48,976 nucleotides of DNA from an uncultured Chlorobiota bacterium. GTDB lineage: Bacteria > Bacteroidota > Bacteroidia > Bacteroidales > JAADGE01. Below the pieces are notes generated by a model. That model was given only the letters and a program-made list of their open reading frames with translations. It had not been told where the DNA came from and made no database searches. Shown piece by piece: positions 25,217 to 48,976 of this stretch. A program made the position numbers and the translations under genes. Where the stretch lies: NCBI GenBank assembly GCA_947311125.1, contig CAMZKI010000048.1, positions 1-48,976 on the forward strand. Direction: 5' to 3'. Positions within the stretch are counted from its first letter, which is position 1. Each line of letters opens with the position of its first letter.

Positions 25217-25819
25217 ATGCAAAATGCAGATAACATACATCCGGTCTTTGATCGGATAATAAGCAAGGAGCAGAAAGAACAACTTCTCAAACAAAGAGCA
25301 AAAGTGTTGTGGTTTACCGGATTGTCCGGTTCCGGAAAAACGACTTTGGGAGCTGCTGTCGAAAAAGAACTTTTTAACCGCGGTTTTCTTACGCAAATAT
25401 TAGACGGCGACAATATTCGCTCCGGTATCAATAAAAATCTGAAATTTACGGAAGAAGACAGAGTTGAGAATATTCGCAGAATTGCCGAGGTTACAAAACT
25501 TTTTTTGAACTGCGGAGTAATTACTATAAACTGTTTTATCAGCCCGACTGAAGAATCTCGAGATATTGCCAAAAGTATTATAGGTAAGGAGAATTATATA
25601 GAGGTTTACGTTAATACACCCATCGAAGTCTGCGAAAAACGAGATATAAAAGGCTTATATGCTAAAGCCAGAAACGGGGAAATAAAAAACTTCACGGGAA
25701 TAACATCACCGTTCGAAGCACCGAAAAATCCGGATATTATTATTAATACAGACAAACTGTCTCCGGAAGAATCTACCAAAAAGATTCTTAACTTTCTTTT
25801 GAAAAAAATTACATATTAA
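25217..25819 (+). CDS. cysC: Adenylyl-sulfate (APS) kinase
   Basis: VLWFTGLSGSGKTTLG P-loop, LDGDNIRSG, FISP and KGLYAKARNGEIKNFTGI are APS kinase hallmarks. Start set at the ATG at 25217. Confidence 0.93.
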   Translation: MQNADNIHPVFDRIISKEQKEQLLKQRAKVLWFTGLSGSGKTTLGAAVEKELFNRGFLTQILDGDNIRSGINKNLKFTEEDRVENIRRIAEVTKLFLNCGVITINCFISPTEESRDIAKSIIGKENYIEVYVNTPIEVCEKRDIKGLYAKARNGEIKNFTGITSPFEAPKNPDIIINTDKLSPEESTKKILNFLLKKITY

Positions 25820-25826
25820 GTTCTGA

Positions 25827-26696
25827 ATGACAGAAAAACAATTAAATAATATTGTGCCGGAAAATTGGTCTATGATAATCAAGCCAAAACGGCATTGGTT
25901 TGACATAAACCTTAAAGAATTATGGGCATACCGAGACCTTATAGCTCTGTTTGTAAGAAGAGATTTTGTAGCAAAATATAAACAGACAATATTAGGTCCT
26001 TTGTGGTTTATAATTCAACCGCTTTTAACAACACTTATGTTTACCGTTGTTTTCGGAAACATTGCAAAACTTTCTACTGACGGGCTGCCTAAAATACTTT
26101 TTTACTTTTCCGGAATTGTAGGATGGAACTATTTTGCAGAAAGCCTTAAAGCAACATCAAATACATTCGTTACAAATGCAAGTATATTCGGGAAAGTATA
26201 TTTTCCGAGATTAACAATGCCGATTTCAATAGTAATTTCAAATTTAGTCCTGTTTTTTATACAGTTCGTGTTTTTGTTGGTTTTTATCGGATATTATTAT
26301 TTCCTGGGCGTAAATATTTCAATAAGCTTCTACATTTTGCTTCTTCCCTTTTTAATTCTTATGACAGCAGGATTAGGGCTCGGCTTCGGTATAATTATAT
26401 CCTCCCTCACAACAAAATACAGAGACCTTACCTACCTGGTAACTTTCGGCGTTCAGCTATGGATGTATGCAACTCCTATCATATATCCTTTGTCAAGTAT
26501 AAGCGGAATATATAAAAAATTTATTCTGCTGAACCCTATGACGCCGATAATAGAAACATTCAGGTTTATTATGTTAGGTTCCGGAGAGCTTAATTTAGGG
26601 CAATTATTGTACAGTTTTATTTTTATGATTGCTACTTTAATTCTGGGGATTTTGCTGTTTAATAAGATAGAGCAGTCATTTATGGATACAGTTTAA
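25827..26696 (+). CDS. wzm: ABC-2 type polysaccharide export permease (Wzm/TagG-like)
   Basis: 289 aa with 6 TM segments. N-terminal WAYRDLIALFVRRDFVAKYKQTILGPLWFIIQPL is the ABC-2 signature region. Confidence 0.88.
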   Translation: MTEKQLNNIVPENWSMIIKPKRHWFDINLKELWAYRDLIALFVRRDFVAKYKQTILGPLWFIIQPLLTTLMFTVVFGNIAKLSTDGLPKILFYFSGIVGWNYFAESLKATSNTFVTNASIFGKVYFPRLTMPISIVISNLVLFFIQFVFLLVFIGYYYFLGVNISISFYILLLPFLILMTAGLGLGFGIIISSLTTKYRDLTYLVTFGVQLWMYATPIIYPLSSISGIYKKFILLNPMTPIIETFRFIMLGSGELNLGQLLYSFIFMIATLILGILLFNKIEQSFMDTV

Positions 26697-26708
26697 TCGT
26701 TTTTTCAG

Positions 26709-27992
26709 ATGTCGAATATTGCAATAAAATTAGAAAATATTTCAAAACAATACCGCCTCGGAGTTGTCGGAACAGGAACACTAAGCCATGACCTGAACCG
26801 TTGGTGGGCGAAAGTCAGAGGAAAAGAAGACCCGACGTTGAAAATCGGACAGGAAAATACCCTGGCTAAAGAAGGAGGAGATTACGTTTGGGCATTAAAA
26901 AATATAAACCTTGAAATAAAACAAGGCGAAGTACTCGGAATAATGGGAAAAAACGGTGCCGGAAAATCTACGCTTTTGAAACTTTTATCTCGGGTAACCG
27001 GACCTACAACCGGACAAATTAAGATTAAAGGGCGTATTGCCAGCCTGTTGGAAGTAGGAACAGGCTTTCACCCTGAATTAACAGGCAGAGAAAATATTTT
27101 TCTGAACGGGGCAATCCTCGGAATGCGAAAAGGGGAAATCCGAAAAAAACTTGATGAAATTGTTGATTTTGCCGGTGTCGCAAAATACTTAGACACACCT
27201 GTTAAACGCTACTCTTCAGGAATGTACGTTCGTCTTGCATTTGCCGTAGCCGCACATCTCGAACCGGACATTCTCGTTGTTGACGAAGTCCTTGCCGTAG
27301 GCGATGCCGAATTTCAGAAAAAAGCAATCGGAAAAATGCAGGACGTAAGCAAAGGTGGTGGCAGGACTGTGCTTTTTGTTAGCCATAATATGGCGAGTAT
27401 TCAACAATTGTGTTCAAGAGCTGTTGTTTTGCAAAGCGGTTCTGTTTTTTTTAACGGAAATGTTAAAAGTGCCGTAGAAAAATACTTGTTACAAAATATA
27501 AACTATTTTAACTCAAAAGGAAGATATGATTTTACAAATCAAAAAATAGGTGATGATAAATTTCTGCTGCAGGAAATAACAGTTTCTGATTCAAAAAATA
27601 AGATAAGAACACTTTTTCTGCAAGAAGAAGAAATTGTTATAAAAATAAAATTTAAACTGTTTTCCTTTATTGCCGGAATGAGAATAAACTTATGGATAAA
27701 AACAGTTTCCGGAATAATTGCTTTCGGAACCAGTTCTCACGAATTAACAAAGGACAGGTTAGACAAAGGTATATATAAAATAAAGGCAATAATACCTCCG
27801 GGGCTTTTAAATACAGGAAGGTATATTTTAGGAATTAATATAGGTATCCCCGGAGTGAAGTTTTTGGTTAAAAACTTTGACTTTGGTTTTGTTGATATTG
27901 AATCAGGAGCTGTTCACGGGTCTGCTTACAGTGAAAAGTGGGAAGGAATTGTTGCCCCAAAAATAGATTGGCTATATGAAGAAGTTAGTTAA
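26709..27992 (+). CDS. wzt: Polysaccharide ABC exporter ATPase (Wzt/TagH-like) with a C-terminal Wzt_C-like extension
   Basis: Walker A GKNGAGKST, signature YSSGMYVRLAFA and Walker B ILVVDE. About 180 extra C-terminal residues are rich in beta-strand-like sequence. Confidence 0.88.
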   Translation: MSNIAIKLENISKQYRLGVVGTGTLSHDLNRWWAKVRGKEDPTLKIGQENTLAKEGGDYVWALKNINLEIKQGEVLGIMGKNGAGKSTLLKLLSRVTGPTTGQIKIKGRIASLLEVGTGFHPELTGRENIFLNGAILGMRKGEIRKKLDEIVDFAGVAKYLDTPVKRYSSGMYVRLAFAVAAHLEPDILVVDEVLAVGDAEFQKKAIGKMQDVSKGGGRTVLFVSHNMASIQQLCSRAVVLQSGSVFFNGNVKSAVEKYLLQNINYFNSKGRYDFTNQKIGDDKFLLQEITVSDSKNKIRTLFLQEEEIVIKIKFKLFSFIAGMRINLWIKTVSGIIAFGTSSHELTKDRLDKGIYKIKAIIPPGLLNTGRYILGINIGIPGVKFLVKNFDFGFVDIESGAVHGSAYSEKWEGIVAPKIDWLYEEVS

Positions 27993-28788
27993 GACAATTA
28001 TTAAAAAAAAACTGAACAGATATGTAGAAAGCAAAATAAAGTCTGTTATGTCTTCAGATTTTTTTATTCCTGTTACAGAAACAAAAGATGAAGATATTTT
28101 TATCGTTGCTTTTCCTAAATCAGGTATTACCTGGATGCAGTCTGTTGTTTCCGGGCTTTTATTTGAAATAAATACAGAATATTTAACAGATCATTTGGCA
28201 CAGGAAATTGTTCCGGATGTTCACGCCCGTAAATTTTATAAAAGATTTTCGGAGTTTAATTTCTTTAAGTCCCACAATCTTCCCCAAAAACAGTATCGCC
28301 GTGTAATTTATTTAGTCAGAGACGGCCGTGATGCTTTAACGTCATATTATTTTTTTAACAAAGAGTTAGGCAACAACTTTTCTCTGGAGGAAATGGTTAC
28401 GGAGGGAAAGGGGATTTTTCCGTCTAAGTGGCACTGCCATGTAAAAAAGTGGCTTGAAAATCCCTATAATGCGGATATTATATATGTGAGATATGAGGAT
28501 TTATTAAAAAATCCGCTAACAGAATTACAAAGGATTTGTAAATTTTCGGGACTGGAACGAAATAATGAAACTTTGAAAAAAATAATTGACGGAACATCAA
28601 TAAAGAAGATGAAACAACGGGCTAAACAATACGGAGGACTGGCTCACAGTGCATGGAAAGGAGAAAAGGGAGAAAAATTTTTCCGTAAAGGAACAATAGG
28701 AGACTATAAAAATTATTTCTCTCCGGATATTTTAAACTTTTTTAATAATGAAGCAAAAGAAGAGTTAGCAAAGTTTAATTATTTATAA
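27976..28788 (+). CDS. Sulfotransfer_1 (PF00685-like, eukaryote-type) PAPS-dependent sulfotransferase
   Basis: 5'-PSB AFPKSGITWMQ, 3'-PB YLVRDGRDALTSYYFF and C-terminal FRKGTIGDYKNYFS. Overlaps the wzt end by 17 nt. Confidence 0.85.
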   Translation: MKKLVKTIIKKKLNRYVESKIKSVMSSDFFIPVTETKDEDIFIVAFPKSGITWMQSVVSGLLFEINTEYLTDHLAQEIVPDVHARKFYKRFSEFNFFKSHNLPQKQYRRVIYLVRDGRDALTSYYFFNKELGNNFSLEEMVTEGKGIFPSKWHCHVKKWLENPYNADIIYVRYEDLLKNPLTELQRICKFSGLERNNETLKKIIDGTSIKKMKQRAKQYGGLAHSAWKGEKGEKFFRKGTIGDYKNYFSPDILNFFNNEAKEELAKFNYL

Positions 28789-28823: not shown

Positions 28824-29486
28824 ATGGTGTTACTTATTAAAAAAATATTAAAACGAATATTAAGTTTCATTTACCCGGAGCTAAAGCCTGTTTTATATTA
28901 TAAATTAAATTTAAACTCTCTAAGGTCTTCTGCTTTTAACACTGTTTTAGGCAAACATGTAAAACTTTATCCCACATATAAAATAAATAACACCACAATC
29001 GGAGACTATACATATATTGCACAAAACTCACAAGTTAATAATACATCAATAGGAAAATTTTGTTCAATCGGTCCCGGTTTCAAATGCGGCTGGGGAGTTC
29101 ATCCGACAAACGGACTTTCAACCAGCCCCGTGTTTTATTCAACATTAAAGCAAAACGGAATAACTTTCAGCAAAACAAACAAAATTGAAGAAACAAAGCC
29201 GATATCAATAGGAAACGATGTTTTTATCGGCAGAGATGTTATAATTTTAGATGGTGTAACAATAGGAAACGGTGCCGTTATAGGGGCAGGAACCGTTGTT
29301 TCAAAAGACATCCCTGACTTTGCCGTTGCTGTCGGCTGTCCGGTTAAGATTGTAAAATATCGGTTCTCGGAAGAACAGAGAAAAAACCTTAACAAAATAA
29401 AATGGTGGGACTTTAATGAAGAGAAATTAAAAAATGTCGAAAAATACTTTTTTGATATTGATAGTTTTATAAAAGAATTTGAATAA
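28824..29486 (+). CDS. Hexapeptide-repeat (XAT/CatB-like) O-acetyltransferase
   Basis: Left-handed beta-helix repeats (IGNDVFIGRDVIILDGVTIGNGAVIGAGTVV) and a C-terminal KYRFSEEQ...WWDF motif typical of the xenobiotic acetyltransferase family. Confidence 0.8.
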   Translation: MVLLIKKILKRILSFIYPELKPVLYYKLNLNSLRSSAFNTVLGKHVKLYPTYKINNTTIGDYTYIAQNSQVNNTSIGKFCSIGPGFKCGWGVHPTNGLSTSPVFYSTLKQNGITFSKTNKIEETKPISIGNDVFIGRDVIILDGVTIGNGAVIGAGTVVSKDIPDFAVAVGCPVKIVKYRFSEEQRKNLNKIKWWDFNEEKLKNVEKYFFDIDSFIKEFE

Positions 29487-30583
29487 TGAAAAAAGCAGCT
29501 CTCTTCTTTGACCGCAGTTATGTTGATGCTCACTTTTGCTTTACGGAGTTGGCAAAACATCTTGTCGAAAACAATTTCTCGGTAGACTTGTATCATCTTG
29601 CAAATCCGTATAATCCGCCGCCCGTTTTTTATGACGACAGAATAAGAGTTTTTAGTTTCCCTTTGTCTAAATTTCAAAAAACAGAGTTTCAGACTAAAAT
29701 AAGGTTTTATAAAGATTATAAATATTCCGTAGTTTTCGGAACGCCGGTAAAAGGCGTTTGGCTGGCATATCAGGCAGCAAAAACACAAAAAATACCTTTA
29801 ATTTACCTTGCCGATGAAATTATTAACCCTAAAACGAAACATTTTGCCGGTATTGATTACGAAAAAGACAAGAAAAAAGATATTATTGCCAATAAATATG
29901 CAGCAGCTACGATAGCTTTAAGCGAAAAAAGATTTCAATATCAAAAAAAAATAAATGTTTTGCCCGATGAGCATAAATACTTTGTTATACCCAATGCTCC
30001 GGCAGGCAGTGCCGTAAAACTAAAGAGTAATTACTTCAGAGATATTTTTAATATAAATGATAATAAGCCGATAATATTATTTATAGGATCTATAAATTGG
30101 AAGTTGGCAAAAAAAATTTTTGAAGACACAAAAAACTTCAAAAATAAAGAATATCATATTATTTTTCACGGCAGAAGCAAAAATCAAATGGGAAAAGAAA
30201 AGCACCCGTTTATAAAAATTTCAGAAACACCGCTGCCTTCATACCTGATAAATTATGCTTTCAGCTCTGCCGATATAGGGCTGGCTCTTTATGACAAAAC
30301 ATCCGTTGCAGAAGCAGAAAACGGAGAAACAGGCGGAAAAATAGGAACATACTTAAAAAACAAGCTCCCTCTTATTGCAGGAAATTTAGATGTTTTTCAT
30401 ACCTTTGAGGAAAAGAATGTCGGTGTTTTTTGGGACGGAAACGAGGATATAGATAAGATTATCAAAAAAGCAATATCAAAAAAAGATGTGATGACTGAAA
30501 ATATTCCTTTATTTTTTGAAAAAAATTATAATTATGACACGTTCTTTAATCCGTTTTTGACCTTTATCAATGAAATTATTTAG
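29486..30583 (+). CDS. Divergent GT-B-fold glycosyltransferase-like protein
   Basis: 365 aa. Two Rossmann-like halves (PIILFIGSINW..., GGKIGTYLKNKLPLIAG). No clear EX7E motif. Start overlaps the upstream stop (TAATG). Confidence 0.45.
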   Translation: MKKAALFFDRSYVDAHFCFTELAKHLVENNFSVDLYHLANPYNPPPVFYDDRIRVFSFPLSKFQKTEFQTKIRFYKDYKYSVVFGTPVKGVWLAYQAAKTQKIPLIYLADEIINPKTKHFAGIDYEKDKKKDIIANKYAAATIALSEKRFQYQKKINVLPDEHKYFVIPNAPAGSAVKLKSNYFRDIFNINDNKPIILFIGSINWKLAKKIFEDTKNFKNKEYHIIFHGRSKNQMGKEKHPFIKISETPLPSYLINYAFSSADIGLALYDKTSVAEAENGETGGKIGTYLKNKLPLIAGNLDVFHTFEEKNVGVFWDGNEDIDKIIKKAISKKDVMTENIPLFFEKNYNYDTFFNPFLTFINEII

Positions 30584-31280
30584 CCTTTATAAAGCAATAA
30601 AAAGAGCCTTAGTTCCTGAACTTAAAAAGTTTTATTCTAATGAATTAATTATAAAAAGGAACGATTATCAAAGAAAAGATATTTTTGTTTCACCTTTTTT
30701 TACAATTGAAAACACAAATTTATCCTGCGGGGTCAGGCTGTACGGCAGAGGAAAAGTTACAAAAAGCAAAATAGGAAGTTACACATATATACACACAGAC
30801 TCAACTATTGCTTATGCTGAAATCGGAAAATTTTGCAGTATAGCACAAAATACAATTATAGCACAAGGTGAACACCCTGCAGACTTTATTTCAACCCATC
30901 CTGTTTTCTACTCAAAAAATGCCCCGTGGAATGATAAATTTTCAAATGAAGACATTATTGAAGAGCACTCAAGCGTAATTATAGGAAATGATGTATGGAT
31001 AGGTGCGGGATGCTATATTAAAGACGGGGTAAAAATAGGAAACGGGGCAATCATAGCTTCCGGCTCTGTTGTTGTAAAAAACGTACCCGACTATGCAATT
31101 GTCGGGGGTGTCCCTGCAAAATTAATAAAATACAGGTTTTCAGAAGAAATAATAAAATTGCTGTCAGATTTAAAATGGTGGGATTATGACATCGATATAC
31201 TGAAAAAACATAAGGGTTTTTTTCAAAAAAAAATAACCGAAAAAGAATTAACATCTCTCATTGAATCTTTAAAAAAATAA
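30570..31280 (+). CDS. Hexapeptide-repeat (XAT/CatB-like) O-acetyltransferase, paralog of 28824-29486
   Basis: IGNDVWIGAGCYIKDGVKIGNGAIIASGSVV and KYRFSEEI...WWDY align with the other acetyltransferase. Confidence 0.8.
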   Translation: MKLFSLYKAIKRALVPELKKFYSNELIIKRNDYQRKDIFVSPFFTIENTNLSCGVRLYGRGKVTKSKIGSYTYIHTDSTIAYAEIGKFCSIAQNTIIAQGEHPADFISTHPVFYSKNAPWNDKFSNEDIIEEHSSVIIGNDVWIGAGCYIKDGVKIGNGAIIASGSVVVKNVPDYAIVGGVPAKLIKYRFSEEIIKLLSDLKWWDYDIDILKKHKGFFQKKITEKELTSLIESLKK

Positions 31281-31281
31281 A

Positions 31282-42557: not shown

Positions 42558-43669
42558 TGAAAAATATGCAAAAAAAAATACTAATAATTTACGGAACTCG
42601 TCCCGAAATCATAAAATTAGCTCCGCTTATTCTTTTGCTAAAAGAAAAAACAGGGAAAAACTGCATTGTCGTGAATACAGGACAACATGCAGATATGACT
42701 AAAGAATTGGAGAAAATATTTTCGTTTACGCCTGATTACTTTTTAGATATAATGACGCAAGGACAAAGTTTAAACTCTCTGATTGTTAAAGCAATACAAG
42801 AAATAGATACTGTTCTTGAAAAAGAAAAACCGGATACGGTAATTGTTCAAGGAGACACAACAACAGTCCTGGCCGGAGGAATTGCAAGTTATTACAGAGG
42901 CATTGATGTCGGACACGTAGAAGCAGGTTTAAGAAGTTTTAACCTGCAAGAGCCGTATCCGGAAGAATTTAACAGAAAAGTTATTTCAATATTCGCAAAA
43001 TATAATTTTGTGCCGACAGAAAAAGCAAAAGAGAACCTTCAAAACGAACAAGTTTTAAACGATAATATATATATTACCGGAAATACCGTTGTTGATGCTT
43101 TACAATTAATAAAACAAAAAATTGACAAAAAAGAGATAGAAACAACGGTAAAAACAAAGCACAAACAAAATATTTTAATAACAGCACACAGAAGAGAAAA
43201 TCACGGCAACGGAATTGAAAATATATGTAAAGCTGTTAAGATTTTATCCGAAAAATATAAGGAGTATAATTTTTATTGGCCTGTTCATCCGAGCCCGAAA
43301 GTTTACAATACGGTTCATCGGTTACTTGCGAATATTGACAACGTAAAACTATTACCGCCGTTAAATTACATTGACCTTGTTTATTTAATGACAAAATCAA
43401 AAATTATATTAACTGATTCCGGAGGAATACAAGAAGAAGCCCCGTCTGTAAAAAAACCTGTTCTGATACTGAGAAACGTTACAGAACGACCGGAAGTTAT
43501 TGACGCAGGATTCGGAAAAATTGTCGGAACAAGTGTTAATAAAATTATTGATACGGTTAAAGTATTATTAAAAGATGATAATGTTTACAAAAAAATGCTT
43601 TCCGGGACAAATCCTTTCGGAGACGGAAAAGCATCTGAAAAGATTATTAAGATTTTGTTAAATGAGTGA
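42557..43669 (+). CDS. wecB: UDP-N-acetylglucosamine 2-epimerase (non-hydrolysing type)
   Basis: ILIIYGTRPEIIKLAPL, VQGDTTT, HVEAGLRS, DSGGIQEEAP and NPFGDGKASEKI. Confidence 0.9.
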   Translation: MKNMQKKILIIYGTRPEIIKLAPLILLLKEKTGKNCIVVNTGQHADMTKELEKIFSFTPDYFLDIMTQGQSLNSLIVKAIQEIDTVLEKEKPDTVIVQGDTTTVLAGGIASYYRGIDVGHVEAGLRSFNLQEPYPEEFNRKVISIFAKYNFVPTEKAKENLQNEQVLNDNIYITGNTVVDALQLIKQKIDKKEIETTVKTKHKQNILITAHRRENHGNGIENICKAVKILSEKYKEYNFYWPVHPSPKVYNTVHRLLANIDNVKLLPPLNYIDLVYLMTKSKIILTDSGGIQEEAPSVKKPVLILRNVTERPEVIDAGFGKIVGTSVNKIIDTVKVLLKDDNVYKKMLSGTNPFGDGKASEKIIKILLNE

Positions 43670-44054
43670 AAAAAAGAAAGTAATTATACTGTCGAATAGT
43701 GAAATTTGTTATAATCCCAGACTTGCAAAAGCTGCCGACAGTCTCTGTGAACAAGGTTATGAGGTAGATGTTTTTAACCCGATTGTCGGAATGGCAAACC
43801 TGCGAATATATTATAATTTTATAAAAAATAAAAAGTGGAATATAAGAGAGTTTGATATAAGCAAACGTAATAACAAAGCAAAAATAAACCGGTTAGTCCC
43901 CGACGAAAAAGTAAAAGAACCGGAGTTCGGAAATCTTTTGCTCGTTAAAGATAATTTTCCTAAAATTGTTGTTTTGCTTGGTGAATATACCGTAAGAAAT
44001 TATAAAGGAATTTTACACCTAAACCTGAGAGATTTTTTGACAAATACAAAATAA
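43662..44054 (+). pseudogene. Truncated N-terminal paralog of the following glycosyltransferase (130 aa)
   Basis: KKVIILSNSEICYNPRLAKAADSLCEQGYEVDVF aligns by eye with KRLLFISPANLTVNPRLLKELNLAVSQGFKVDFV of the 404-aa neighbour. Similarity is lost after ~80 aa and the ORF ends. Confidence 0.5.
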
Positions 44055-44057
44055 CAG

Positions 44058-45272
44058 ATGCCCAAGAGACTGCTTTTCATTTCACCTGCAAACCTAACCG
44101 TAAACCCTCGCTTGCTTAAAGAGCTAAATCTTGCAGTAAGTCAAGGCTTTAAGGTTGATTTTGTAGGCTTTAAACTTGGTAATTGGAGCGATGAAATTGA
44201 TAAAAAACTTATCAAAAACATTGATGCAAATTTTCATTATATTTCAATAACTCGAAAGCCGTTTTTAAGCTGGTTTATAAATTCTGTTATAGAAAAAATA
44301 GCACAAAAAATTTATCCTTTTTTTAAGAAAATTTTTAAAATAAACGCTTACGCACACAGCAAAAGATCTATTTTATTAAATAATTACCTGAAAAAAAATA
44401 AAACAAAATACGACCTAATAATTGCCCACGTTTTGCCTACTTTATACCCTGCCTGCAAATTTGCAAAACGCACAAACACAAAATTTATTTTTGATATTGA
44501 AGACTACCACCCGGGCGAAGCAATCGGCAAACAGGCCGAAAGCGAAAAAGCAAGGCGTATTTTTTTGATGAAAAAGCTCTTACCCAAAGCCGCTTATATT
44601 ACCTACGCATCGCCTTTGATTGGCGAATACAGTTTAAAATTAGCAGAAAATTACTCCGAAAACAGGCATCAATTAATCAATAATTGTTTTTCGGTAGATG
44701 AATTTCAATTCAAACAAACCGGAAGCAAAAAAATAAAATTTGTTTGGTTTTCGCAAAATATTGCAGCGGGTAGAGGCTTGGAACTTGTTGTTCCTGCATT
44801 GGAAAAATTTCAAAATAAAATAGAATTACACCTTATCGGTAATTTGTATCAAACTTTTTACGATGATTTTCTTTCAAAACACAGTGATTTTATAAAAATT
44901 CACAAACCGCTACCACAAAAAGACTTAAACCTTAAACTTGCAGAATTTGACATTGGCTTGGCTATTGAACCGGGAAAAGACTTGAATAATAACATAGCTG
45001 TTTCAAATAAAATTTGGGCATATTTTCAAAGCGGTTTGTACATTTTAGCCAGCAATACGCCCGCACAGCTTCAATTTATTGAAAAACACAAAAATTGCGG
45101 AATAATTGCCCAACAAAACACCAACAGTTTTATAAACAAAATTTCCGAAATTATTGATACGATTGACACAATACGTGTAAACAAAAAAACACGTTTTGAA
45201 TATGCAAAAAACTTTGCTTGGGAGCAGGAAAGCCAGAAATTATTACAAATTTGGAAGCTTTTTATAAAATGA
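44058..45272 (+). CDS. GT-B-fold glycosyltransferase
   Basis: 404 aa. The N-terminal half is Rossmann-like. The C-terminal half has KFVWFSQNIAAGRGLE and SNKIWAYFQSGLYILASN. Confidence 0.65.
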   Translation: MPKRLLFISPANLTVNPRLLKELNLAVSQGFKVDFVGFKLGNWSDEIDKKLIKNIDANFHYISITRKPFLSWFINSVIEKIAQKIYPFFKKIFKINAYAHSKRSILLNNYLKKNKTKYDLIIAHVLPTLYPACKFAKRTNTKFIFDIEDYHPGEAIGKQAESEKARRIFLMKKLLPKAAYITYASPLIGEYSLKLAENYSENRHQLINNCFSVDEFQFKQTGSKKIKFVWFSQNIAAGRGLELVVPALEKFQNKIELHLIGNLYQTFYDDFLSKHSDFIKIHKPLPQKDLNLKLAEFDIGLAIEPGKDLNNNIAVSNKIWAYFQSGLYILASNTPAQLQFIEKHKNCGIIAQQNTNSFINKISEIIDTIDTIRVNKKTRFEYAKNFAWEQESQKLLQIWKLFIK

Positions 45273-45273
45273 T

Positions 45274-45349
45274 GGCGACAATTTTGCTAATTTCGCCAAA
45301 ATAGTCGCTACTATTTTAGTGTTTTCGCCAAAATAGTCGCTGCTATTTT
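45274..45349. repeat. Three copies of a ~13-bp box (one inverted, two direct within 26-bp direct repeats)
   Basis: TTCGCCAAAATAGTCGCTACTATTTT (45292-45317) and TTCGCCAAAATAGTCGCTGCTATTTT (45324-45349) match at 25 of 26 positions. GGCGACAATTTTG (45274-45286) is a reverse-complement near-match to CAAAATAGTCGCT. Confidence 0.8.
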
Positions 45350-45371
45350 TGTTTTTCTCTGAAAAATAGTG

Positions 45372-45390
45372 TTACTTTGTAACAAAGTAA
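45372..45390. promoter_or_regulatory. Perfect 9-1-9 palindrome immediately upstream of the ATPase gene (operator-like)
   Basis: TTACTTTGT A ACAAAGTAA at 45372-45390, ending 10 nt before the ATG at 45401. Confidence 0.5.
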
Positions 45391-45400
45391 TTGTTTTAAG

Positions 45401-46642
45401 ATGTTGAAATACAGAGAAAAATATTTATCAAAAATATATAAAAGTATTTCTGAAATGTCCATAACCGTTTTAATAGGTGCTAGGCAGGTAGGAAAAACTT
45501 CATTGCTCGAAAGTGTAAAAACGGATACCGATATTTTAAAATTAGACGGACAATTACCGGATATCAACAATCTGTTTGCCAATGTAAACGAGTTAATATC
45601 ATTTTTAAAAATCAAAATAAACAATGACTTAAACGGCTTACTTATTATTGATGAATTTCAAATGATAAGTAATGTGTCGTCAACATTAAAAATTTTAGTA
45701 GATAAATTTAAGAATTTAAAAATATTATGCAGCGGTAGCAGTAGTTTAGATATAATTCAAAAAGCTGAAGAATCATTATCGGGCAGAATAAGAATGATTT
45801 ATGTTTATTCCTTGTCCTTTTCAGAGAATATTTTATTTTATAAAAATGAATTATTTGAAGAATATAAAAAATACGATATAAATACCGCTACAAATATTAT
45901 TGCCCCCGAAATAAAACAAATATTGAACAAACAACTTATTTTTGGTGCTATGCCGAGAGTTTGTTTAAATGAGCAGGCAGAAACAAAAATGCAAATTCTT
46001 GATGATATTTATAAAACTTATTTATTGAGAGATGTTAAAGCATATATTCAGAATAAGGATTCGGTCGGGTTCAATAAGCTGCTAAGACTATTAGCTTTGC
46101 AAATCGGAAATATGGTTAATGTAAATGAAATTTCAAAAATTACGGGACTTTCTTATAATAAATGCGAAGATTTTATTTACTTACTCGAACAAATGTTTGT
46201 TATTAAATTAATAGAGCCTTATGAAACAAATAAACGGAAAGCGATAAAAAAAATGAGAAAAGTATTTTTTTTAGATTTAGGCATACGAAATATAATTATT
46301 CAAAATTTTAATTCGCCCGATTTAAGAACTGATACAGGTGCATTATTCGAGAATTTTGTTTTTTTAGAGATAATAAAACATTTAGAAAGCTACCACACTA
46401 TAAATTTTTACAGAACACGCGACGGAGCCGAAGTAGATTTTGTGCTTAATGATATGTTAAAAAAGAGTAGTTTTGAGGTCAAATATAAATCATTAGAAAA
46501 AACTGTTTATTACAAAGCTTTAAATAATTTTAATATAGATGAAAAAATAGCTCAATCTTATGTAGTTAATTTACAGCTGAATGCTAAACAAAACAAAATA
46601 CATTATTTACCTGCATACTTAATCGAAAAAATATTTACGTGA
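45401..46642 (+). CDS. AAA+ ATPase of the AAA_14/DUF4143 type
   Basis: VLIGARQVGKTSL Walker A, LLIIDEFQ Walker B, and a C-terminal FENFVFLEI...DGAEVDFV region typical of DUF4143. Confidence 0.8.
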   Translation: MLKYREKYLSKIYKSISEMSITVLIGARQVGKTSLLESVKTDTDILKLDGQLPDINNLFANVNELISFLKIKINNDLNGLLIIDEFQMISNVSSTLKILVDKFKNLKILCSGSSSLDIIQKAEESLSGRIRMIYVYSLSFSENILFYKNELFEEYKKYDINTATNIIAPEIKQILNKQLIFGAMPRVCLNEQAETKMQILDDIYKTYLLRDVKAYIQNKDSVGFNKLLRLLALQIGNMVNVNEISKITGLSYNKCEDFIYLLEQMFVIKLIEPYETNKRKAIKKMRKVFFLDLGIRNIIIQNFNSPDLRTDTGALFENFVFLEIIKHLESYHTINFYRTRDGAEVDFVLNDMLKKSSFEVKYKSLEKTVYYKALNNFNIDEKIAQSYVVNLQLNAKQNKIHYLPAYLIEKIFT

Positions 46643-47886
46643 AAAAAATATTCATTATAGCACCGCACTTTCCGCCCTCTGCGTTACCTCCGTCCCAAAG
46701 AGTTCGTTTAATGGTAAAACATCTGAAAAACTTAGGTTGGTATCCGCATATTTTTACTACAGAACCAAAATACAGAGAAGAAAAAGAAGACGCTTGGATG
46801 ACCGAACTTGCCGGTAATGATTTTGACATAACTGTCGTAAAAGCCTTAAACCAAAAAAAAACACGAAAATTCGGCATCGGAGATTTAGGCTTAAGAATGA
46901 TACCCTACCTTATGCCTGCCGTAAAAAAAGCCGCAAAAAAAGAAACGCCCGATTTTATACTTTACCCTGTTCCGCCCTGGTATATTTTGTTAATTGCACC
47001 GCTTATTAAAAGAAAAACCGACATTCCTTACGGAATAGACTTTATAGACCCTTGGTTTGTCGGCGAAATTCCGAAAGCTGCAAATTTTAAAAAACGCATA
47101 AGCCAAAAAATTGCACGCAGATTTGAAAGAAAAGCTGTTTTAAATGCAGATATTATATACTCAGTTTCAGAAGGAATAAATAATAATCTGAAAGAAAGAT
47201 ATAATTTGCCGAAAAGCAAGCCTCTTCTTGCAATTCCCTACGGTGTAGAACCCTCTGATTTTAATTTGAAAACAGAAAAAAAGACATCCGATAAAGTTAT
47301 TTTCAGGTATGTCGGTGCCGTATGGAATAACGCATATCCTGTTTTAGAACCGCTGTTAAAAGTTTTATCTGTAACAGAAAAGCAAATTCCTTTAAAAATT
47401 GAATTCTACGGAACATCTTATGCCGGTGAAAATTTGGCAAAGCCGCAAACGATTAAGTGGATTGAAAAATTTAGGATGCAGAACTATATGACAGAAAATC
47501 CTCTGCGTGTTTCGTATAAAAAGGCAGTTGAATTAACAATGACATCTGATATTATTCTGCTTTTCGGAGGAATGCAACCGTATTATGCCGCATCAAAACT
47601 TATGGGGCTTATTGCATCCGGCAAACCGTTCATTGCTTTTTTACATAAAGACTCTTTCCCTGCAGAATTTCTAAAACATCTTAACTATAAATACATTGTT
47701 ACATACTCGGAAAAAGAATTACCGGAAACAAAATTGAAGGAATTGACAGAAAAAATAAAAGAATTAATTAAAAACAAAGACAACTTTGCTAAATTTGACC
47801 TCTCAAATCCTTTAATTCAAAAACACACAGCATTAGGTATGACAAAAGAATTTGTTATGCCGATTGAAAATTTATTAAAAAAATAA
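46639..47886 (+). CDS. GT-B-fold glycosyltransferase (GT4-like)
   Basis: KKIFIIAPHFPPSALPPSQRVRLMVKHL resembles the N-terminus of the 40356 gene product, and ASKLMGLIASGKPFIAFL is also present. The GTG start overlaps the ATPase stop (GTGA). Confidence 0.7.
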   Translation: MKKIFIIAPHFPPSALPPSQRVRLMVKHLKNLGWYPHIFTTEPKYREEKEDAWMTELAGNDFDITVVKALNQKKTRKFGIGDLGLRMIPYLMPAVKKAAKKETPDFILYPVPPWYILLIAPLIKRKTDIPYGIDFIDPWFVGEIPKAANFKKRISQKIARRFERKAVLNADIIYSVSEGINNNLKERYNLPKSKPLLAIPYGVEPSDFNLKTEKKTSDKVIFRYVGAVWNNAYPVLEPLLKVLSVTEKQIPLKIEFYGTSYAGENLAKPQTIKWIEKFRMQNYMTENPLRVSYKKAVELTMTSDIILLFGGMQPYYAASKLMGLIASGKPFIAFLHKDSFPAEFLKHLNYKYIVTYSEKELPETKLKELTEKIKELIKNKDNFAKFDLSNPLIQKHTALGMTKEFVMPIENLLKK

Positions 47887-47887
47887 A

Positions 47888-48859
47888 ATGATAAATCACA
47901 GAGAAAAAATAAAAAATAAAAAAGTGCTTGTAACCGGCGGTGCCGGCTTTGTCGGTCACAACTTAGTAAGAAGTCTCGTAAACGATTATAATTGTGAGGT
48001 AATTGTGGTTGACGACCTGTCAAACAGTACAGAAAAAACCTTGTCTGATATTATTAAAAAAATCGAGTTTCATAAAATAAGTGTTTGCGACAAAGAAAAA
48101 CTGTTTCCGTTATTAAAAAATACCGATTATATATTTCATCTTGCCTGCAAGCAAATATCATCGTCAGGCTCCGAACCGAATGTTCATTTAAAAATAAATG
48201 CCGAAAGCACTTTAAATATTCTTGAATATATTCGGCATAATGACCTCCCGAATTTAAAACGTTTTATTTATACCGGCTCAACATCAATTTACGGAAGCTC
48301 CGTAAGGCTGCCGGTAAACGAAAACGATGCACCTGAAGTTTTGAGCAGTTATGCCGCAACGAAACTTCTCGGAGAAAATTTTACGGCTATGTATTGCAGA
48401 AACTATGACGTTCCTGCAACAGTAGTAAGATATTCAAACGTTTACGGCTACGGTCAAACTCCAAAAAACCCGTATGCCGGAGTTCTCGGCAAATTCATAC
48501 ACAATGCTCTTACAAACAAAACTCTTACTATTTTCGGAGACGGAGAACAAACCCGAGATTATACTTTTATAACAGATGCCGTTGATGCAACAATTCTTGC
48601 GGCAGTTCACCCGCGTGCATACGGCGATATTTTTAACATTGGAACAACTGTTGAAACATCCGTAAACAAACTTGTCGAAATTATTTCCGATTATGTGGGA
48701 GAAGTTAAATCAGAGAACGTTCCCGAACGTGATATTGACAATATAAGGAGACGTTCCGTAAGTATTTCAAAAATACACAAAAACCTTGGATGGGCTCCTC
48801 GCTTTGATATAAAAAGAGGCGTCAAAGAAACTATAGATTGGTATAAAACAATATTGTAA
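47888..48859 (+). CDS. NAD-dependent nucleotide-sugar epimerase/dehydratase (extended SDR)
   Basis: KVLVTGGAGFVGHNLV, YAATK catalytic motif and RYSNVYG. Specificity is not assignable by eye. Confidence 0.85.
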   Translation: MINHREKIKNKKVLVTGGAGFVGHNLVRSLVNDYNCEVIVVDDLSNSTEKTLSDIIKKIEFHKISVCDKEKLFPLLKNTDYIFHLACKQISSSGSEPNVHLKINAESTLNILEYIRHNDLPNLKRFIYTGSTSIYGSSVRLPVNENDAPEVLSSYAATKLLGENFTAMYCRNYDVPATVVRYSNVYGYGQTPKNPYAGVLGKFIHNALTNKTLTIFGDGEQTRDYTFITDAVDATILAAVHPRAYGDIFNIGTTVETSVNKLVEIISDYVGEVKSENVPERDIDNIRRRSVSISKIHKNLGWAPRFDIKRGVKETIDWYKTIL

Positions 48860-48863
48860 CAGT

Positions 48864-48976
48864 GTGAAAAAACTGGCCATAATCATAACACACCCTATAC
48901 AATACTATTCGCCGCTGTTTAAGCTTTTGGCGGAAAGGAATAAAATCCGGATAAAAGTTTTTTACACATGGGAGCA
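48864..48976 (+). CDS. Partial CDS: N-terminus of another glycosyltransferase-like protein (runs off the window)
   Basis: GTG-initiated VKKLAIIITHPIQYYSPLFKLLAERNKIRIKVFYTWE.... This is a GT-B-like N-terminal strand-loop-helix pattern, truncated by the window edge. Confidence 0.45.
   Translation, partial: MKKLAIIITHPIQYYSPLFKLLAERNKIRIKVFYTWE

Follow-up and report, generated by a model that had tools for sequence, protein, structure and literature searches.

Organization of the locus

The DNA analysed here (the window, 48,976 nt) is the whole contig of a MAG from an uncultured Bacteroidota bacterium. On the ORF map, a train of plus-strand genes runs from 25178/25217 to 48859, with approximately 26 genes between 25217 and the contig end. 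Neighboring genes lie -17 to +62 nt apart, with ten of the junctions overlapping, such that the single train described in an earlier sequence-only reading of this DNA was borne out, except for one larger gap of 128 nt (45272-45401). The other elements listed in that reading were likewise found where it had placed them, including the promoter box ahead of the train. TAnnTTTG is the -7 promoter consensus of the Bacteroidota, and the TATATTTG box, which fits it, is a candidate promoter of the cysC-led train; a sigma-70 scan of the sequence gave nothing above chance, the sigma-70 model not being applicable to Bacteroidota. Comparison with contigs of a sister MAG indicated that the operon extends beyond the end of the window. 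The features of the train are as follows:

25173-25180, plus strand: TATATTTG box, read from the sequence, 36 nt 5' of the cysC ATG (25217)
25217-25819, plus strand: cysC, adenylyl-sulfate (APS) kinase, 200 aa, converting APS to PAPS (PF01583 4.8e-62)
25827-26696, plus strand: wzm, ABC-2 permease of the glycan exporter (PF01061, ABC2_membrane, 6.8e-19)
26709-27992, plus strand: wzt, exporter ATPase, 427 aa (ABC_tran 4.6e-23; Wzt_C 2.2e-5, under the Pfam cut-off)
aa ~51-263 of Wzt, plus strand: nucleotide-binding domain
aa ~264-427 of Wzt (nt ~27498-27989), plus strand: C-terminal carbohydrate-binding domain (CBD)
27976-28788, plus strand: ST1, SULT-type PAPS-dependent sulfotransferase (PF00685 4e-38)
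28824-29486, plus strand: AT1, hexapeptide-repeat acyltransferase (Hexapep 1.6e-16)
29486-30583, plus strand: 365-aa protein (Glyco_transf_4, the GT4 N-terminal domain, at E 0.02 only)
30570-31280, plus strand: AT2, hexapeptide-repeat acyltransferase, AT1 paralogue (Hexapep 7e-15)
31282-31683, plus strand: FdtA-type dTDP-4-keto-6-deoxyhexose 3,4-ketoisomerase (PF05523 1.3e-45)
31687-32610, plus strand: ST2, PAPS-dependent sulfotransferase of the TPST/CurM/NodH-type family (PF13469 4.3e-29)
32626-33177, plus strand: AT3, small left-handed beta-helix sugar N-acetyltransferase, FdtC/NeuD-PglB-VioB-like (Hexapep 2e-24)
33240-34205, plus strand: GT2 glycosyltransferase (PF00535 8e-38)
34202-35305, plus strand: DegT/FdtB-type sugar aminotransferase (PF01041 6e-113)
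35309-36265, plus strand: GT2 glycosyltransferase (PF13641 4e-11; PF00535 2e-9)
36249-37232, plus strand: PseB/FnlA-like UDP-GlcNAc 4,6-dehydratase (Polysacc_synt_2 4e-103)
37238-38059, plus strand: RmlD-like reductase (RmlD_sub_bind 9e-18)
38052-39245, plus strand: GT4 glycosyltransferase (Glycos_transf_1 1e-31)
39294-40355, plus strand: Epimerase_2 (UDP-HexNAc 2-epimerase family) with a nonsense codon (PF02350 4.5e-97, 332-aa remainder)
40356-41696, plus strand: GT4 glycosyltransferase (Glycos_transf_1 and Glyco_transf_4 ~3e-11)
41707-42557, plus strand: FkbM-family methyltransferase, frameshifted (Methyltransf_21 1.8e-9, 3' ORF)
42557-43669, plus strand: WecB-like UDP-GlcNAc 2-epimerase (PF02350 2.6e-108)
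43662-44054, plus strand: glycosyltransferase N-terminal fragment, 130 aa
44058-45272, plus strand: GT4-like glycosyltransferase, 404 aa (weak GT4 matches only)
45401-46642, plus strand: AAA_14/DUF4143 ATPase (PF13635 1e-35; PF13173 1e-22)
46639-47886, plus strand: GT4 glycosyltransferase (Glyco_transf_4 2e-11)
47888-48859, plus strand: SDR nucleotide-sugar epimerase/dehydratase (Epimerase 2.6e-52; GDP_Man_Dehyd 4e-47)
48864-48976, plus strand: 5' end of a GT1-family glycosyltransferase running off the contig (Glycos_transf_1 1.6e-34)

The nucleotide-sugar pathways expected from the earlier reading are represented by the FdtA, DegT, dehydratase and reductase genes, the two Epimerase_2 genes and the terminal SDR epimerase, and its three acetyltransferases by AT1, AT2 and AT3. 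The dehydratase matched both PseB (TIGR03589, 7e-104) and FnlA (TIGR04130, 8e-92), each below its equivalog cut-off, and together with the RmlD-like reductase it points to a 2-acetamido-2,6-dideoxy-hexose pathway; AT3 matched the NeuD/PglB/VioB family (TIGR03570, 7e-30), also below cut-off. The count of at least seven glycosyltransferases was too high, as six are confident (33240, 35309, 38052, 40356, 44058 and 46639, that at 44058 being weak), to which may be added the very faint candidate at 29486, a protein that is without a Pfam or NCBIfam match, and the gene at the contig end. On the sister contigs, the latter GT1-family gene is followed by one for a 446-aa multi-pass membrane protein that is WaaL/Wzy-like (faint Wzy match, E 0.28; approximately 11 hydrophobic segments in a hydropathy scan). 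The AAA_14/DUF4143 ATPase gene, which follows the sole large gap, is probably an insertion that lies outside the pathway.

Two genes are damaged in the window. The first Epimerase_2 gene has an in-frame TAA at 39324-39326 (codon 11; translation MILTIIGARP*FIKAAV), and the FkbM gene is frameshifted at an A8 run (42024-42031). Both are intact in the sister MAG (locus L084), where they encode proteins of 353 aa and 283 aa (PF05050 9e-15), respectively, and the lesions in the window may thus represent assembly errors or strain variants. The sister MAG also has a single 408-aa glycosyltransferase where the window has the 130-aa fragment and the 404-aa protein, the N-termini of which are alike.

Supply of PAPS

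The placement of cysC as the first gene of the train had been noted previously, and its identity was secured by matches above the curated equivalog thresholds (NF003013, 244 bits, cut-off 163; TIGR00455, 241 bits, cut-off 139) and by the presence of the P-loop GLSGSGKTT and the DGDN and FISP motifs. As had also been noted, the ORFs annotated in the window include no cysD, cysN or cysH; nor does the window contain cysQ, an initiating transferase or RmlA/RmlB. Given this lack of cysDN, cysH and cysQ, coupled with the nonsense codon, the frameshift, the glycosyltransferase fragment and the inserted ATPase gene in the window copy, cysC might be regarded as a housekeeping assimilatory APS kinase of a strain that makes no sulfated glycan, the sulfotransferases being inactive or the locus decaying. 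Such a situation is improbable: cysC is promoter-proximal and separated from wzm by only 7 nt, the cysC, wzm, wzt, ST1 and ST2 genes are full length with their motifs intact, and both damaged genes are whole in the sister MAG. Moreover, this wzm-wzt-sulfotransferase module is adjoined by cysC in three further lineages, viz. a Saccharicrinis genome, another Bacteroidota MAG and a cyanobacterial MAG, while a cysC-cysD-cysN set adjoins an ST1 homologue in a Bacteroidia MAG. By locus, PAPS genes lie beside the module or ST1 as cysC in L006, L019 and L028, as cysC-cysD-cysN in L013 and as cysD-cysNC in L078.

The sulfotransferases

ST1 and ST2 both passed the HMMs of their respective families, a check that had been proposed earlier. 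ST1, the first 17 nt of which overlap the end of wzt, contains PKSGITW, RDGRD...S and FRKGTIGDYKNYF. Across 20 ST1 homologues, there is no variation at P47, S49, G50, T52, W53, H100, R115-D119 or S123, and K48 is nearly invariant. In the homologues, the 5'-PSB loop and the 3'-PB motif, like the catalytic His and the RKG motif at the C-terminus, vary little or not at all. An AlphaFold2 model of ST1 (pLDDT 90.3) gave PAP-bound SULT1B1/1E1 as its top Foldseek matches (TM 0.64-0.70), so that structure prediction, the check proposed earlier for PAPS binding, assigns ST1 a predicted PAP-binding SULT fold. Its N-terminal helix of 26 residues is not conserved among the homologues. Enzymes of the SULT fold commonly use small-molecule acceptors, a caveat for any model in which ST1 acts on a glycan terminus.

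ST2 contains PRSGSTLL. Among PDB sequences it is nearest to TPST1 (2e-12) and to the CurM sulfotransferase (1e-11), the alignments including PRSGSTLL and VRNP...S; NoeE, a fucose sulfotransferase, was matched weakly and partially (2e-10), below cut-off. With FdtA on one side and the Fdt acetyltransferase and aminotransferase genes on the other, ST2 is proposed to be a sulfotransferase of a repeat-unit sugar. The third sulfotransferase of the earlier reading, ST3, also scored above the family cut-off, with GHSGST where P[KR]SG[ST]T is expected; it belongs to a separate upstream cassette:

20121-20972, plus strand: ST3 sulfotransferase (PF13469 5e-9, 37 bits, cut-off 27)
20965-21879, plus strand: 304-aa protein
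21900-23174, plus strand: Wzx-like multi-pass membrane protein with at least seven hydrophobic segments (Polysacc_synt 3e-6, below cut-off)

The Wzt-ST1 module

Wzm, with at least five hydrophobic segments in a hydropathy scan, and Wzt account by their family matches for the ABC-2 exporter ascribed to the operon. Wzt aligned with full-length Wzt of A. aeolicus (8dku, 1e-63), the alignment reaching into the CBD. Relatives of ST1 were found in 320 species genomes, and among the 68 copies with enough upstream sequence to assess, wzt lies immediately 5' of ST1 in 33, representing at least seven phyla (gaps of -76 to +179 nt). The Wzt proteins of all 33 loci (402-587 aa) each bear a C-terminal CBD, and wzt-adjacent ST1 copies occur in all clades of the ST1 tree. 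A single CBD family holds 30 of the 34 linked C-terminal domains, a different type being found in two ST1-linked Wzt proteins (L007 and L012), and its Arg, GxP and Trp are kept in 28 of the 30 members; in the window Wzt, the residues so conserved among the related domains are R325, G379-x-P381, G413, P417 and W421. A profile of the ST1-linked domains matched the A. aeolicus CBD (6o14/8dky/7k2t, 2e-6) and placed the invariant Arg and the GIPG motif next to the cap-pocket strand and trap loop of that domain (residue numbers from PMC9445017). This conserved coupling of ST1 with a CBD-bearing Wzt is a new finding that goes beyond the earlier reading.

A reverse search with a DNA pattern of the CBD motif retrieved 14 metagenome loci, 13 of them assessable, with a sulfotransferase directly 3' of wzt in 12 and one of the ST1 family in 11; the motif having been derived from ST1-linked sequences, co-inheritance of the module could explain part of this association. 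In the twelfth, L092, a PF17784 sulfotransferase fills the post-wzt slot instead of ST1. AT1 homologues (51-55% identity) lie directly 3' of ST1 in L005, L006, L007 and L031, but the other genes of the window are not common to the module loci, suggesting that the module travels with different glycans.

These observations bear on the notion that the true acceptors are not glycans but a lipid, a small metabolite or protein tyrosine, the position of the sulfotransferases in the operon being incidental. The nearest solved relatives of ST1 are indeed cytosolic small-molecule SULTs, those of ST2 are tyrosylprotein and polyketide sulfotransferases, and about half of the ST1 relatives lack a neighboring wzt. 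Nevertheless, the adjacency in 33 and 12 independent loci across phyla, the overlap of ST1 with wzt, the setting of ST2 among Fdt genes and its partial match to a carbohydrate sulfotransferase render this notion highly improbable. Very probably, the operon makes and exports a sulfated cell-surface polysaccharide, the pathway that had been suggested at the outset and which the family HMMs, the PAPS motifs, the ST1 fold and comparative genomics, with cysC recurring beside the module in other lineages, support.

Sulfate as a candidate export cap

The product is envisaged as a sulfated, acetylated, amino-sugar-rich surface heteropolysaccharide assembled in an ABC-transporter-dependent manner, probably as an O-antigen-like chain on undecaprenyl phosphate at the cytoplasmic face. 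CysC would make PAPS locally from APS, with ATP sulfurylase supplied by a gene at another site of the genome. The donors, namely 3-acetamido-3,6-dideoxyhexose, 2-acetamido-2,6-dideoxyhexose and ManNAc-type sugars, would come from the Fdt-type and PseB/FnlA-type pathways and the 2-epimerases, and six to eight glycosyltransferases would build the chain from them, with acetylation by the hexapeptide transferases and sulfation of a repeat-unit sugar by ST2. Translationally coupled to wzt, ST1 would then move sulfate from PAPS onto the non-reducing terminal residue, and this sulfate, possibly with an O-acetyl group from AT1, would be the cap that ends elongation. Recognition of the cap by the Wzt CBD would license export through Wzm/Wzt, and the WaaL/Wzy-like membrane protein beyond the window would attach the exported chain. 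The families, the motifs, the fold of ST1 and the conserved gene coupling are shown by the sequence analysis, from which we infer a glycan acceptor, action of ST1 at its terminus and reading of the sulfate by the CBD; as a whole, a terminal sulfate cap added by ST1 and read by Wzt for export of an O-antigen-like glycan is proposed tentatively, its chance being a little short of even.

A somewhat unlikely arrangement is that ST1 and ST2 both decorate internal sugars of the repeat unit, while the CBD reads another cap (the O-methyl group of FkbM or a terminal sugar) and the adjacency of ST1 and wzt reflects co-expression only. Methyl caps are the best documented, including that of the closest solved Wzt (PMC9445017), and the sulfate of known bacterial sulfated glycans is on repeat units (PMC11641403, PMC11766843). 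A methyltransferase is encoded in the operon, intact in the sister MAG, and methyltransferase families are common around the module: one survey of neighbors gave about 15 such ORFs in 17 loci, and another placed methyltransferase-like ORFs near at least 13 of 33 modules. Methyl could therefore be the cap and sulfate internal. However, the window gene is frameshifted, and no methyltransferase was detected near 20 of the 33 modules, yet all of their Wzt proteins bear a CBD. The conservation of ST1 and the CBD family against differing sugar and glycosyltransferase genes would also be unexpected for a repeat-unit-specific enzyme, and at L092 it is another sulfotransferase family that occupies the slot.

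Comparison with known systems

The order of genes proposed here for sulfate capping has a counterpart in the O9a cluster of E. coli, where the terminator gene wbdD lies directly 3' of wzt. An extended coiled-coil ruler is a feature of the characterised terminators (PMC11231755), whereas a crude heptad scan revealed none in any protein of the present locus, a difference that favors internal sulfation by ST1. All characterised systems that have a terminating residue also have a Wzt with a carbohydrate-binding module that binds the terminal epitope (PMC11231755), and those that require a cap depend on the CBD for export (PMC9445017). The rarity of glycan sulfation in bacteria had been overstated, as the sulfated capsules described in Vibrio and Cobetia were already linked to clusters in which PAPS genes and sulfotransferases accompany an ABC exporter (PMC11641403, PMC11766843). 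Beside these systems, a terminal sulfate cap, if the model is correct, would represent a novel type of "finished, export me" tag for a sugar chain.

Gene Organization of the Locus

The sequence spans the whole of a 48,976-bp contig from a metagenome-assembled genome (MAG) with a G+C content of approximately 33%, and the locus also occurs in near-identical form in two further assemblies, GCA_054019675.1 and GCA_054021135.1. The best named relatives of the RecA encoded in the window are found in MAGs labelled Chlorobi (93% identity) and Bacteroidetes/Bacteroidales (90% identity); given these values, the host is an uncultured Bacteroidota, which is the only label that is safe. An open reading frame (ORF) map combined with Pfam and NCBIfam assignments bore out the organization described in an earlier, sequence-only reading, namely a gene train headed by cysC that includes sulfotransferases and an exporter; its count of at least seven glycosyltransferases (GTs) was too generous, as only six are confident. 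The train runs unbroken on the plus strand from position 25217 to the end of the contig; its neighbouring genes overlap by up to 17 nt or stand up to 62 nt apart, with the single exception of a 128-nt gap 5' of an AAA_14/DUF4143 ATPase gene. This ATPase gene (45401-46642) lies within the glycosyltransferase block, and the sister assemblies carry it too.

Gene order of the operon, by Pfam and NCBIfam (25217 to contig end, plus strand)
Block 1: cysC, wzm, wzt
Block 2: ST1 (PF00685 sulfotransferase), hexapeptide acyltransferase, unknown 365-aa protein, second hexapeptide acyltransferase
Block 3: FdtA, ST2 (PF13469 sulfotransferase), small LbH N-acetyltransferase, GT2, DegT aminotransferase, GT2
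Block 4: PseB/FnlA-like dehydratase, RmlD-like reductase, GT4, Epimerase_2, GT4
Block 5: FkbM methyltransferase, WecB-like epimerase, GT fragment and GT4-like protein, ATPase, GT4, SDR epimerase

Sister contigs reveal that the operon extends further, with a gene of the GT1 family followed by one for a 446-aa WaaL/Wzy-like protein with approximately 11 hydrophobic segments. FdtA (1e-45), the DegT aminotransferase (6e-113) and the small LbH acetyltransferase may belong to a pathway to a dTDP-3-acetamido-3,6-dideoxyhexose (Fuc3NAc/Qui3NAc); neither RmlA nor RmlB was found within the window. A Kps-type capsule locus was considered and rejected, as Kps, Wza and Wzc families are missing from the operon; Poly_export, GNVR and Kps-type families are likewise absent from the whole window, where cysC stands without cysD and cysN.

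The box TATATTTG is located at 25173-25180, 36 nt 5' of the cysC ATG; this putative promoter element matches the Bacteroidota -7 consensus TAnnTTTG. Scans of the sequence for sigma-70 promoters (54 sites compared to 44.7 expected) and for terminators (8 compared to 6.1) were both uninformative, and the promoters of Bacteroidota differ in any case. A second, identical box at 24564-24571 precedes a 161-aa ORF (region 24564-25163) that matches only positions 84-175 of the 184 in the LolA_like profile, corresponding to its C-terminal half; this ORF is probably a truncated gene just 5' of the cysC promoter.

Lesions and Unusual Genes in This Copy

Two genes of the operon are damaged in the window. 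The FkbM methyltransferase gene (41707-42557) is read as two overlapping ORFs owing to a frameshift in an A8 homopolymer at 42024-42031, while its counterpart in the locus of a sister MAG (L084, 3935-4786) is undamaged and encodes 283 aa; the frameshift may have arisen in assembly, may mark a pseudogene of this strain or may reflect phase variation, by strand slippage, of an enzyme that modifies the glycan. The first Epimerase_2 gene (39294-40355) carries an in-frame TAA at 39324-39326, where a CAA to TAA change affects codon 11 within the conserved GARPQFIK; the same gene is undamaged in the sister locus (1522-2583; 353 aa). At 43662-45272, a 130-aa ORF resembles the N-terminus of the 404-aa GT4-like protein that follows it, and the sister MAG encodes one 408-aa glycosyltransferase at this place. 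The arrangement looks like the scar of a recombination or duplication, hinting that strains have exchanged alleles of a glycosyltransferase gene.

Elsewhere on the contig are genes for a CitMHS-family anion transporter (542 aa, 909-2537) and an SBF-family symporter (13809-14756). In Aeromonas hydrophila O33, a citT gene was reported between cysC and cysN (PMC6124807), and by analogy a role of these transporters in sulfate uptake is conceivable; their genes are, however, 10-24 kb away from the operon. A 335-aa ORF without a family match (16371-17378, plus strand) lies antisense to a UbiD-like decarboxylase gene (15260-17152, minus strand) and is probably spurious.

The Sulfotransferases

ST1, the product of the gene directly following wzt, is a single-domain protein of 270 aa that matches PF00685 with 131.7 bits (cut-off 22; E 4e-38) over profile positions 1-254 of 255. 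It retains the 5'-PSB loop PKSGITW (residues 47-53), the catalytic H100, the 3'-PB motif RDGRDALTS (115-123) and a C-terminal FRKGTIGDYK. In an alignment of ST1 with 19 homologues (40-62% identity), these motifs show conservation of 90% or more, up to invariance, and they line up with their equivalents in human SULT1C2. An AF2 model built on the homologue alignment (pLDDT 90.3, pTM 0.85) was searched with Foldseek, and the top 50 matches were all sulfotransferases, most with PAP or PAPS bound (approximately 1e-12, TM 0.61-0.70), the best being PAP-bound cytosolic sulfotransferases (TM 0.64-0.70). The assignments made in the sequence-only reading thus withstood scrutiny: ST1 (PF00685) and ST2 (PF13469) both exceed the gathering scores of their families, the PAPS-binding residues of ST1 are intact and conserved among homologues, and the ST1 model matches the fold of PAP-bound SULTs. 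Enzymes of this fold often act on small molecules; that ST1 does so too, rather than modifying a glycan, is very improbable, as the context of its gene speaks against such a role, and it is from this context that a glycan acceptor is proposed.

ST2 matches PF13469 with 102.8 bits (cut-off 27; 4e-29). Its PRSGSTLL and VRNPFSVIAS (3'-PB Arg/Ser) align with TPST1, and its motifs also align with the sulfotransferase domain of CurM; NoeE, a fucose sulfotransferase, is matched weakly and in part (40 bits compared to an equivalog cut-off of 500). The ST2 gene has fdtA on one side and the Fdt genes for an acetyltransferase and an aminotransferase on the other; ST2 is more likely a sulfotransferase of the repeat unit.

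A third sulfotransferase, ST3, passes PF13469 modestly; GHSGST replaces the usual P[KR]SG[ST]T, placing a His where Lys or Arg is found in the phosphosulfate loop. Its three-gene cassette is flanked by minus-strand signalling genes (17173-24491), and its inclusion in the operon was rejected, as the minus-strand FHA gene and the LolA-like fragment intervene.

The ST3 cassette and flanking genes
17173-18903, minus: Ser/Thr kinase with SH3 domain
18903-20015, minus: PP2C phosphatase
20121-23174, plus: ST3 cassette encoding sulfotransferase, unknown 304-aa protein and Wzx-like membrane protein
23175-24491, minus: FHA-domain protein

Supply of PAPS

CysC exceeds the cut-offs of PF01583 (208.9 bits; 21.1), TIGR00455 (240.7; 138.7) and NF003013 (244.1; 163), and its translation contains the P-loop GLSGSGKTT (Walker A), LDGDNIR (DGDN) and CFISP (FISP serine loop), motifs that Escherichia coli CysC also has. 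An ATP sulfurylase partner is not evident in the window, as none of its ORFs encodes a PAPS_reduct/CysD or GTP_EFTU/CysN protein; the earlier remark that cysD, cysN and cysH are all absent from this stretch holds for its annotated ORFs.

Related loci fetched from other genomes offer several arrangements in which sulfate activation and the exporter-sulfotransferase genes lie together. Saccharicrinis sp. 156 has cysC-wzm-wzt-ST1-AT1, with AT1 denoting the hexapeptide acyltransferase directly after ST1, and with a Schlafen/AlbA gene inserted between wzm and wzt; this insertion (6057-7448 of that locus, L006) is a Schlafen/AlbA_2 plus HATPase_c_4 gene, and the gene set is otherwise syntenic. One Bacteroidota MAG carries cysC-wza-wzc...wzm-wzt-ST1, one cyanobacterial MAG wzm-cysC-wzt-ST1-AT, one Bacteroidia MAG (L013) ugd-cysC-cysD-x-cysN a few kb upstream of ST1, and one alphaproteobacterial locus (L078) cysD-cysNC; the last two contain both cysD and cysN. 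With cysC found within 10 kb in five of 79 loci, the frequency is, by a rough estimate, well above chance for one copy per genome. The idea of a local PAPS supply thereby gains support from the sharing of a locus by cysC and the exporter-sulfotransferase genes in several other lineages. That cysC is instead a housekeeping copy in a locus that is decaying in this strain is improbable: the genes for sulfation and export are all intact, and both lesions are absent from the sister MAG.

Association of wzt and ST1 Across Genomes

Relatives of ST1 were sought in 185,579 species genomes; 320 were found and 79 loci were fetched. A Wzt homologue is encoded immediately 5' of ST1 in 33 of the 68 copies with enough upstream sequence (gaps of -76 to +179 nt), usually with wzm 5' of wzt, and wzm-wzt lies within 10 kb in several additional loci; half of the ST1 family does not adjoin wzt. 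The 33 loci derive from Bacteroidota, Planctomycetota, Verrucomicrobiota, Cyanobacteriota, Chloroflexota, Kiritimatiellota and Proteobacteria, and a neighbour-joining tree of the family scatters the ST1 proteins encoded next to wzt through all its major clades. The window's glycosyltransferases, its Fdt and Fnl pathways and ST2 are not common to the ST1-linked loci; AT1 is the sole other shared gene, found 3' of ST1 in a handful of them, and the remaining neighbours are mixed (GT2, GT4, GT10, GDP-mannose dehydratases, methyltransferases and acetyltransferases). Since the rest of each locus varies, wzm-wzt-ST1, with a C-terminal carbohydrate-binding domain (CBD) on Wzt, behaves as a travelling module, associated with one glycan chemistry or another. 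Culturable organisms that carry it include Saccharicrinis sp. 156, Salegentibacter tibetensis JZCK2, Algoriphagus sp. SE2 and Stieleria spp. An uncultured Flavobacteriaceae MAG (L007, 4409-9682) contains two such units in tandem, the first comprising wzt (4409-5683) with a differing CBD type and ST1 (5762-6598), and the second wzm, a wzt split into two ORFs, ST1 (8843-9682) and AT1.

Because ST1 had been the starting point for finding the module, a reverse test was made from the CBD side. JGI metagenome contigs were scanned for DNA encoding the CBD motif P-x2-LL-x4-Y-x4-NAGIPG, with a degenerate pattern, and the 14 matches, 13 of which had at least 700 nt downstream, were all true Wzt C-terminal domains. 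An ST1-family gene follows wzt directly in 11 of these 13 loci, a sample that is not independent of the ancestry of the module given that the motif was derived from ST1-linked sequences. In another (L092, 464-1330), the ST1 slot after a Wzt of the same CBD family is occupied by a sulfotransferase of PF17784 (Sulfotransfer_4, 6e-23); this non-orthologous replacement argues for selection on sulfation beside the exporter and not on a single gene lineage. Only L088 lacks a sulfotransferase after wzt, and has NUDIX, sugar dehydrogenase, acetyltransferase, aminotransferase and GT2 genes instead. Thus, ST1 follows wzt in the window, in the 33 loci of the genome search and in the 11 of the reverse test, and a non-orthologous sulfotransferase does so in one more.

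The Exporter and Its Carbohydrate-Binding Domain

Wzm and Wzt of the window match PF01061 (7e-19) and PF00005 (5e-23), respectively, and the best PDB matches of Wzt are Aquifex aeolicus Wzt (1e-63) followed by TarH/TagH and mycobacterial RfbE. The Pfam Wzt_C profile scores 24.9 bits on the window Wzt, under its cut-off of 30.4; the phmmer alignment with full-length A. aeolicus Wzt extends into the CBD of the latter, and a 17-sequence profile of ST1-linked C-terminal domains finds the isolated CBD chains 8dky and 6o14 (approximately 1e-5) and full-length Wzt (2e-6). Every ST1-linked Wzt is 402-587 aa long and hence has a C-terminal extension. One sequence family covers 30 of 34 of these extensions, and in 28 of the 30 an invariant Arg (R325 in the window), G-x-P, and Gly, Pro and Trp residues near the C-terminus are kept; two ST1-linked Wzt proteins have a different type of CBD. 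In sequence alignments using published numbering, the invariant Arg falls on the pocket strand of the A. aeolicus CBD, two positions ahead of Ile299/Leu300 in the cap pocket, and the GIPG kept in the ST1-linked family lies opposite the trap loop (PMC9445017); the hydrophobic pocket residues that bind methyl are not conserved in this family. The bearing of these positions on cap recognition is suggestive only, as it comes from aligned residues.

A Proposed Role for Sulfate as a Cap

In the ABC transporter-dependent pathway, the O-antigen chain is completed in the cytoplasm. The presence of a CBD on the window Wzt leads to the expectation of a cap, and the gene translationally coupled to wzt, both in the window and across phyla, encodes a PAPS-dependent sulfotransferase; from this combination, ST1 is proposed to be the cap enzyme. 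In the O9a cluster of E. coli, the terminator gene wbdD occupies the same position after wzt. ST1 would sulfate the non-reducing terminal sugar, and this terminal sulfate, perhaps together with an acetyl group from AT1, would constitute the cap read by the CBD of Wzt, with ST2 adding sulfate to a sugar of the repeat unit. In cap-dependent systems, the terminal modification halts elongation and is bound by the Wzt-fused CBD, and export depends on this CBD (PMC9445017, PMC11231755). Both papers list caps, among them methyl, methyl-phosphate and Kdo, and pyruvate in one case where it is dispensable for export; sulfate is on neither list (PMC9445017, PMC11231755).

The components of the proposal differ in strength. 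That the locus directs the synthesis of a sulfated glycan and its export by Wzm/Wzt is probable, and to this extent the interpretation offered in the sequence-only reading is upheld as far as genomics reaches, by family profiles, PAPS-binding residues and comparative loci. The further proposition, that ST1 forms the cap by acting at the chain terminus, is close to evenly poised and falls just on the doubtful side. We only tentatively suggest the broadest generalization, in which a SULT-type sulfate ester would be a hitherto unrecognized chain-terminating export tag read by the Arg/Trp family of CBDs, and the module would be a mobile cassette serving many glycans in seven phyla.

The main rival to a sulfate cap holds that methyl is the true cap and sulfate an internal decoration. 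Methyltransferases are encoded in the window operon and near at least 13 of the 33 modules, a count obtained by seeded phmmer that is a lower bound. A methyl cap is judged rather unlikely, though it deserves the most serious consideration of the alternatives. Returning to ST1 as the putative cap enzyme, characterized terminators carry an extended coiled coil that serves as a ruler (PMC11231755). A crude heptad scan detected no extended coiled coil in the 29 proteins of the locus, and the N-terminal helix of ST1 is short in the model (residues 2-27) and missing from some homologues. Lacking such a ruler, ST1 falls outside the WbdD/WbbB type, whether or not its function is analogous.

Implications

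To our knowledge, work on Bacteroidota and sulfated glycans has dealt with their consumption and not with their production. The biosynthesis of sulfated glycans by bacteria is little studied in general, and the acceptor is defined for almost none of the bacterial polysaccharide sulfotransferases (PMC11625862, PMC11641403); our literature searches yielded no publication on sulfated O-antigens or their genetics from Flavobacteria or Bacteroidota. The basic pathway is plausible and not unprecedented, and, if real, would make a sulfated surface polymer of Bacteroidota accessible through a tractable set of genes, namely cysC, those of the two sulfotransferases and those of the exporter. The conserved wzt-sulfotransferase-CBD module is widespread and new to the literature searched. 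If sulfation is indeed coupled to export, sulfate would be a fourth class of O-antigen cap beside methyl, methyl-phosphate and Kdo, a family of CBDs recognizing sulfate would be defined, and an account would be at hand for hundreds of unannotated sulfotransferase genes beside wzt in at least seven phyla. The terminal anionic epitope would then be the outermost feature met by phages, grazers and immune receptors, and glyco-engineering would profit from a small soluble sulfotransferase of glycan ends that comes with its own binding domain. Should sulfate serve generally as an export tag, sulfated O-antigen termini would be widespread among environmental bacteria.

Comparison With Known Systems

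PAPS-dependent sulfation of glycoconjugates with a dedicated local source of PAPS is likewise found in rhizobia, with NodH, NoeE and KpsS (Mesorhizobium loti) together with NodPQ, and NodH is assigned to PF13469 (PMC11625862), the Pfam family of ST2; the rhizobial acceptors are, however, Nod factors or K-antigens, and there is no coupling to Wzm/Wzt. For the sulfated capsules of Vibrio sp. KMM 8419 and Cobetia marina KMM 1449, gene clusters have been published in which PAPS genes likewise occur with sulfotransferases and an ABC exporter. These Gammaproteobacteria use Kps-type export (KpsMT/ED/SC), encode a full cysDNC (with or without cysQ) and carry the sulfate on rhamnose of the repeat unit, whereas the window derives from a Bacteroidota, has Wzm/Wzt with a CBD and only cysC, and lacks Kps genes.

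A sulfotransferase gene beside exporter genes has a single mention in the non-subscription literature searched: the uncharacterized ORF19 of the wbsalmo cluster of Aeromonas salmonicida encodes a sulfotransferase domain directly after a wzt of 438 aa. Sulfate was not detected in the bulk O-antigen, for which reason the authors could not explain ORF19 (PMC4483657). By analogy with the arrangement proposed here, the lack of bulk sulfate would fit a minor terminal group or a cap added once per chain. By its published description, ORF19 is shorter than ST1, at 216 aa, and a WbbB homologue is encoded 3' of it.

The O-antigen systems of E. coli O8/O9a (equivalent to Klebsiella pneumoniae O5/O3) and K. 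pneumoniae O4/O7/O12 likewise use the ABC pathway and a Wzt with a C-terminal CBD, and also encode an enzyme transferring a small group, a terminator of the WbdD/WbbB type, directly beside wzt. WbbB of K. pneumoniae is a terminator that adds Kdo. An anionic cap has precedent in the methyl-phosphate ester of O9a/O7 (PMC11231755, PMC9445017). The A. aeolicus WzmWzt, which handles a 3-O-methyl-Man/Rha cap, is the closest solved homologue of the window Wzt across nucleotide-binding domain (NBD) and CBD alike (8dku, 7k2t, 6o14). Unlike the E. coli and K. pneumoniae systems, in which the terminator is a kinase/methyltransferase or a Kdo transferase, the candidate terminator of the window is a PAPS-dependent sulfotransferase, and the exporter-coupled sulfotransferase module would, if it works as proposed, be a variation on the capped ABC-transporter pathway.
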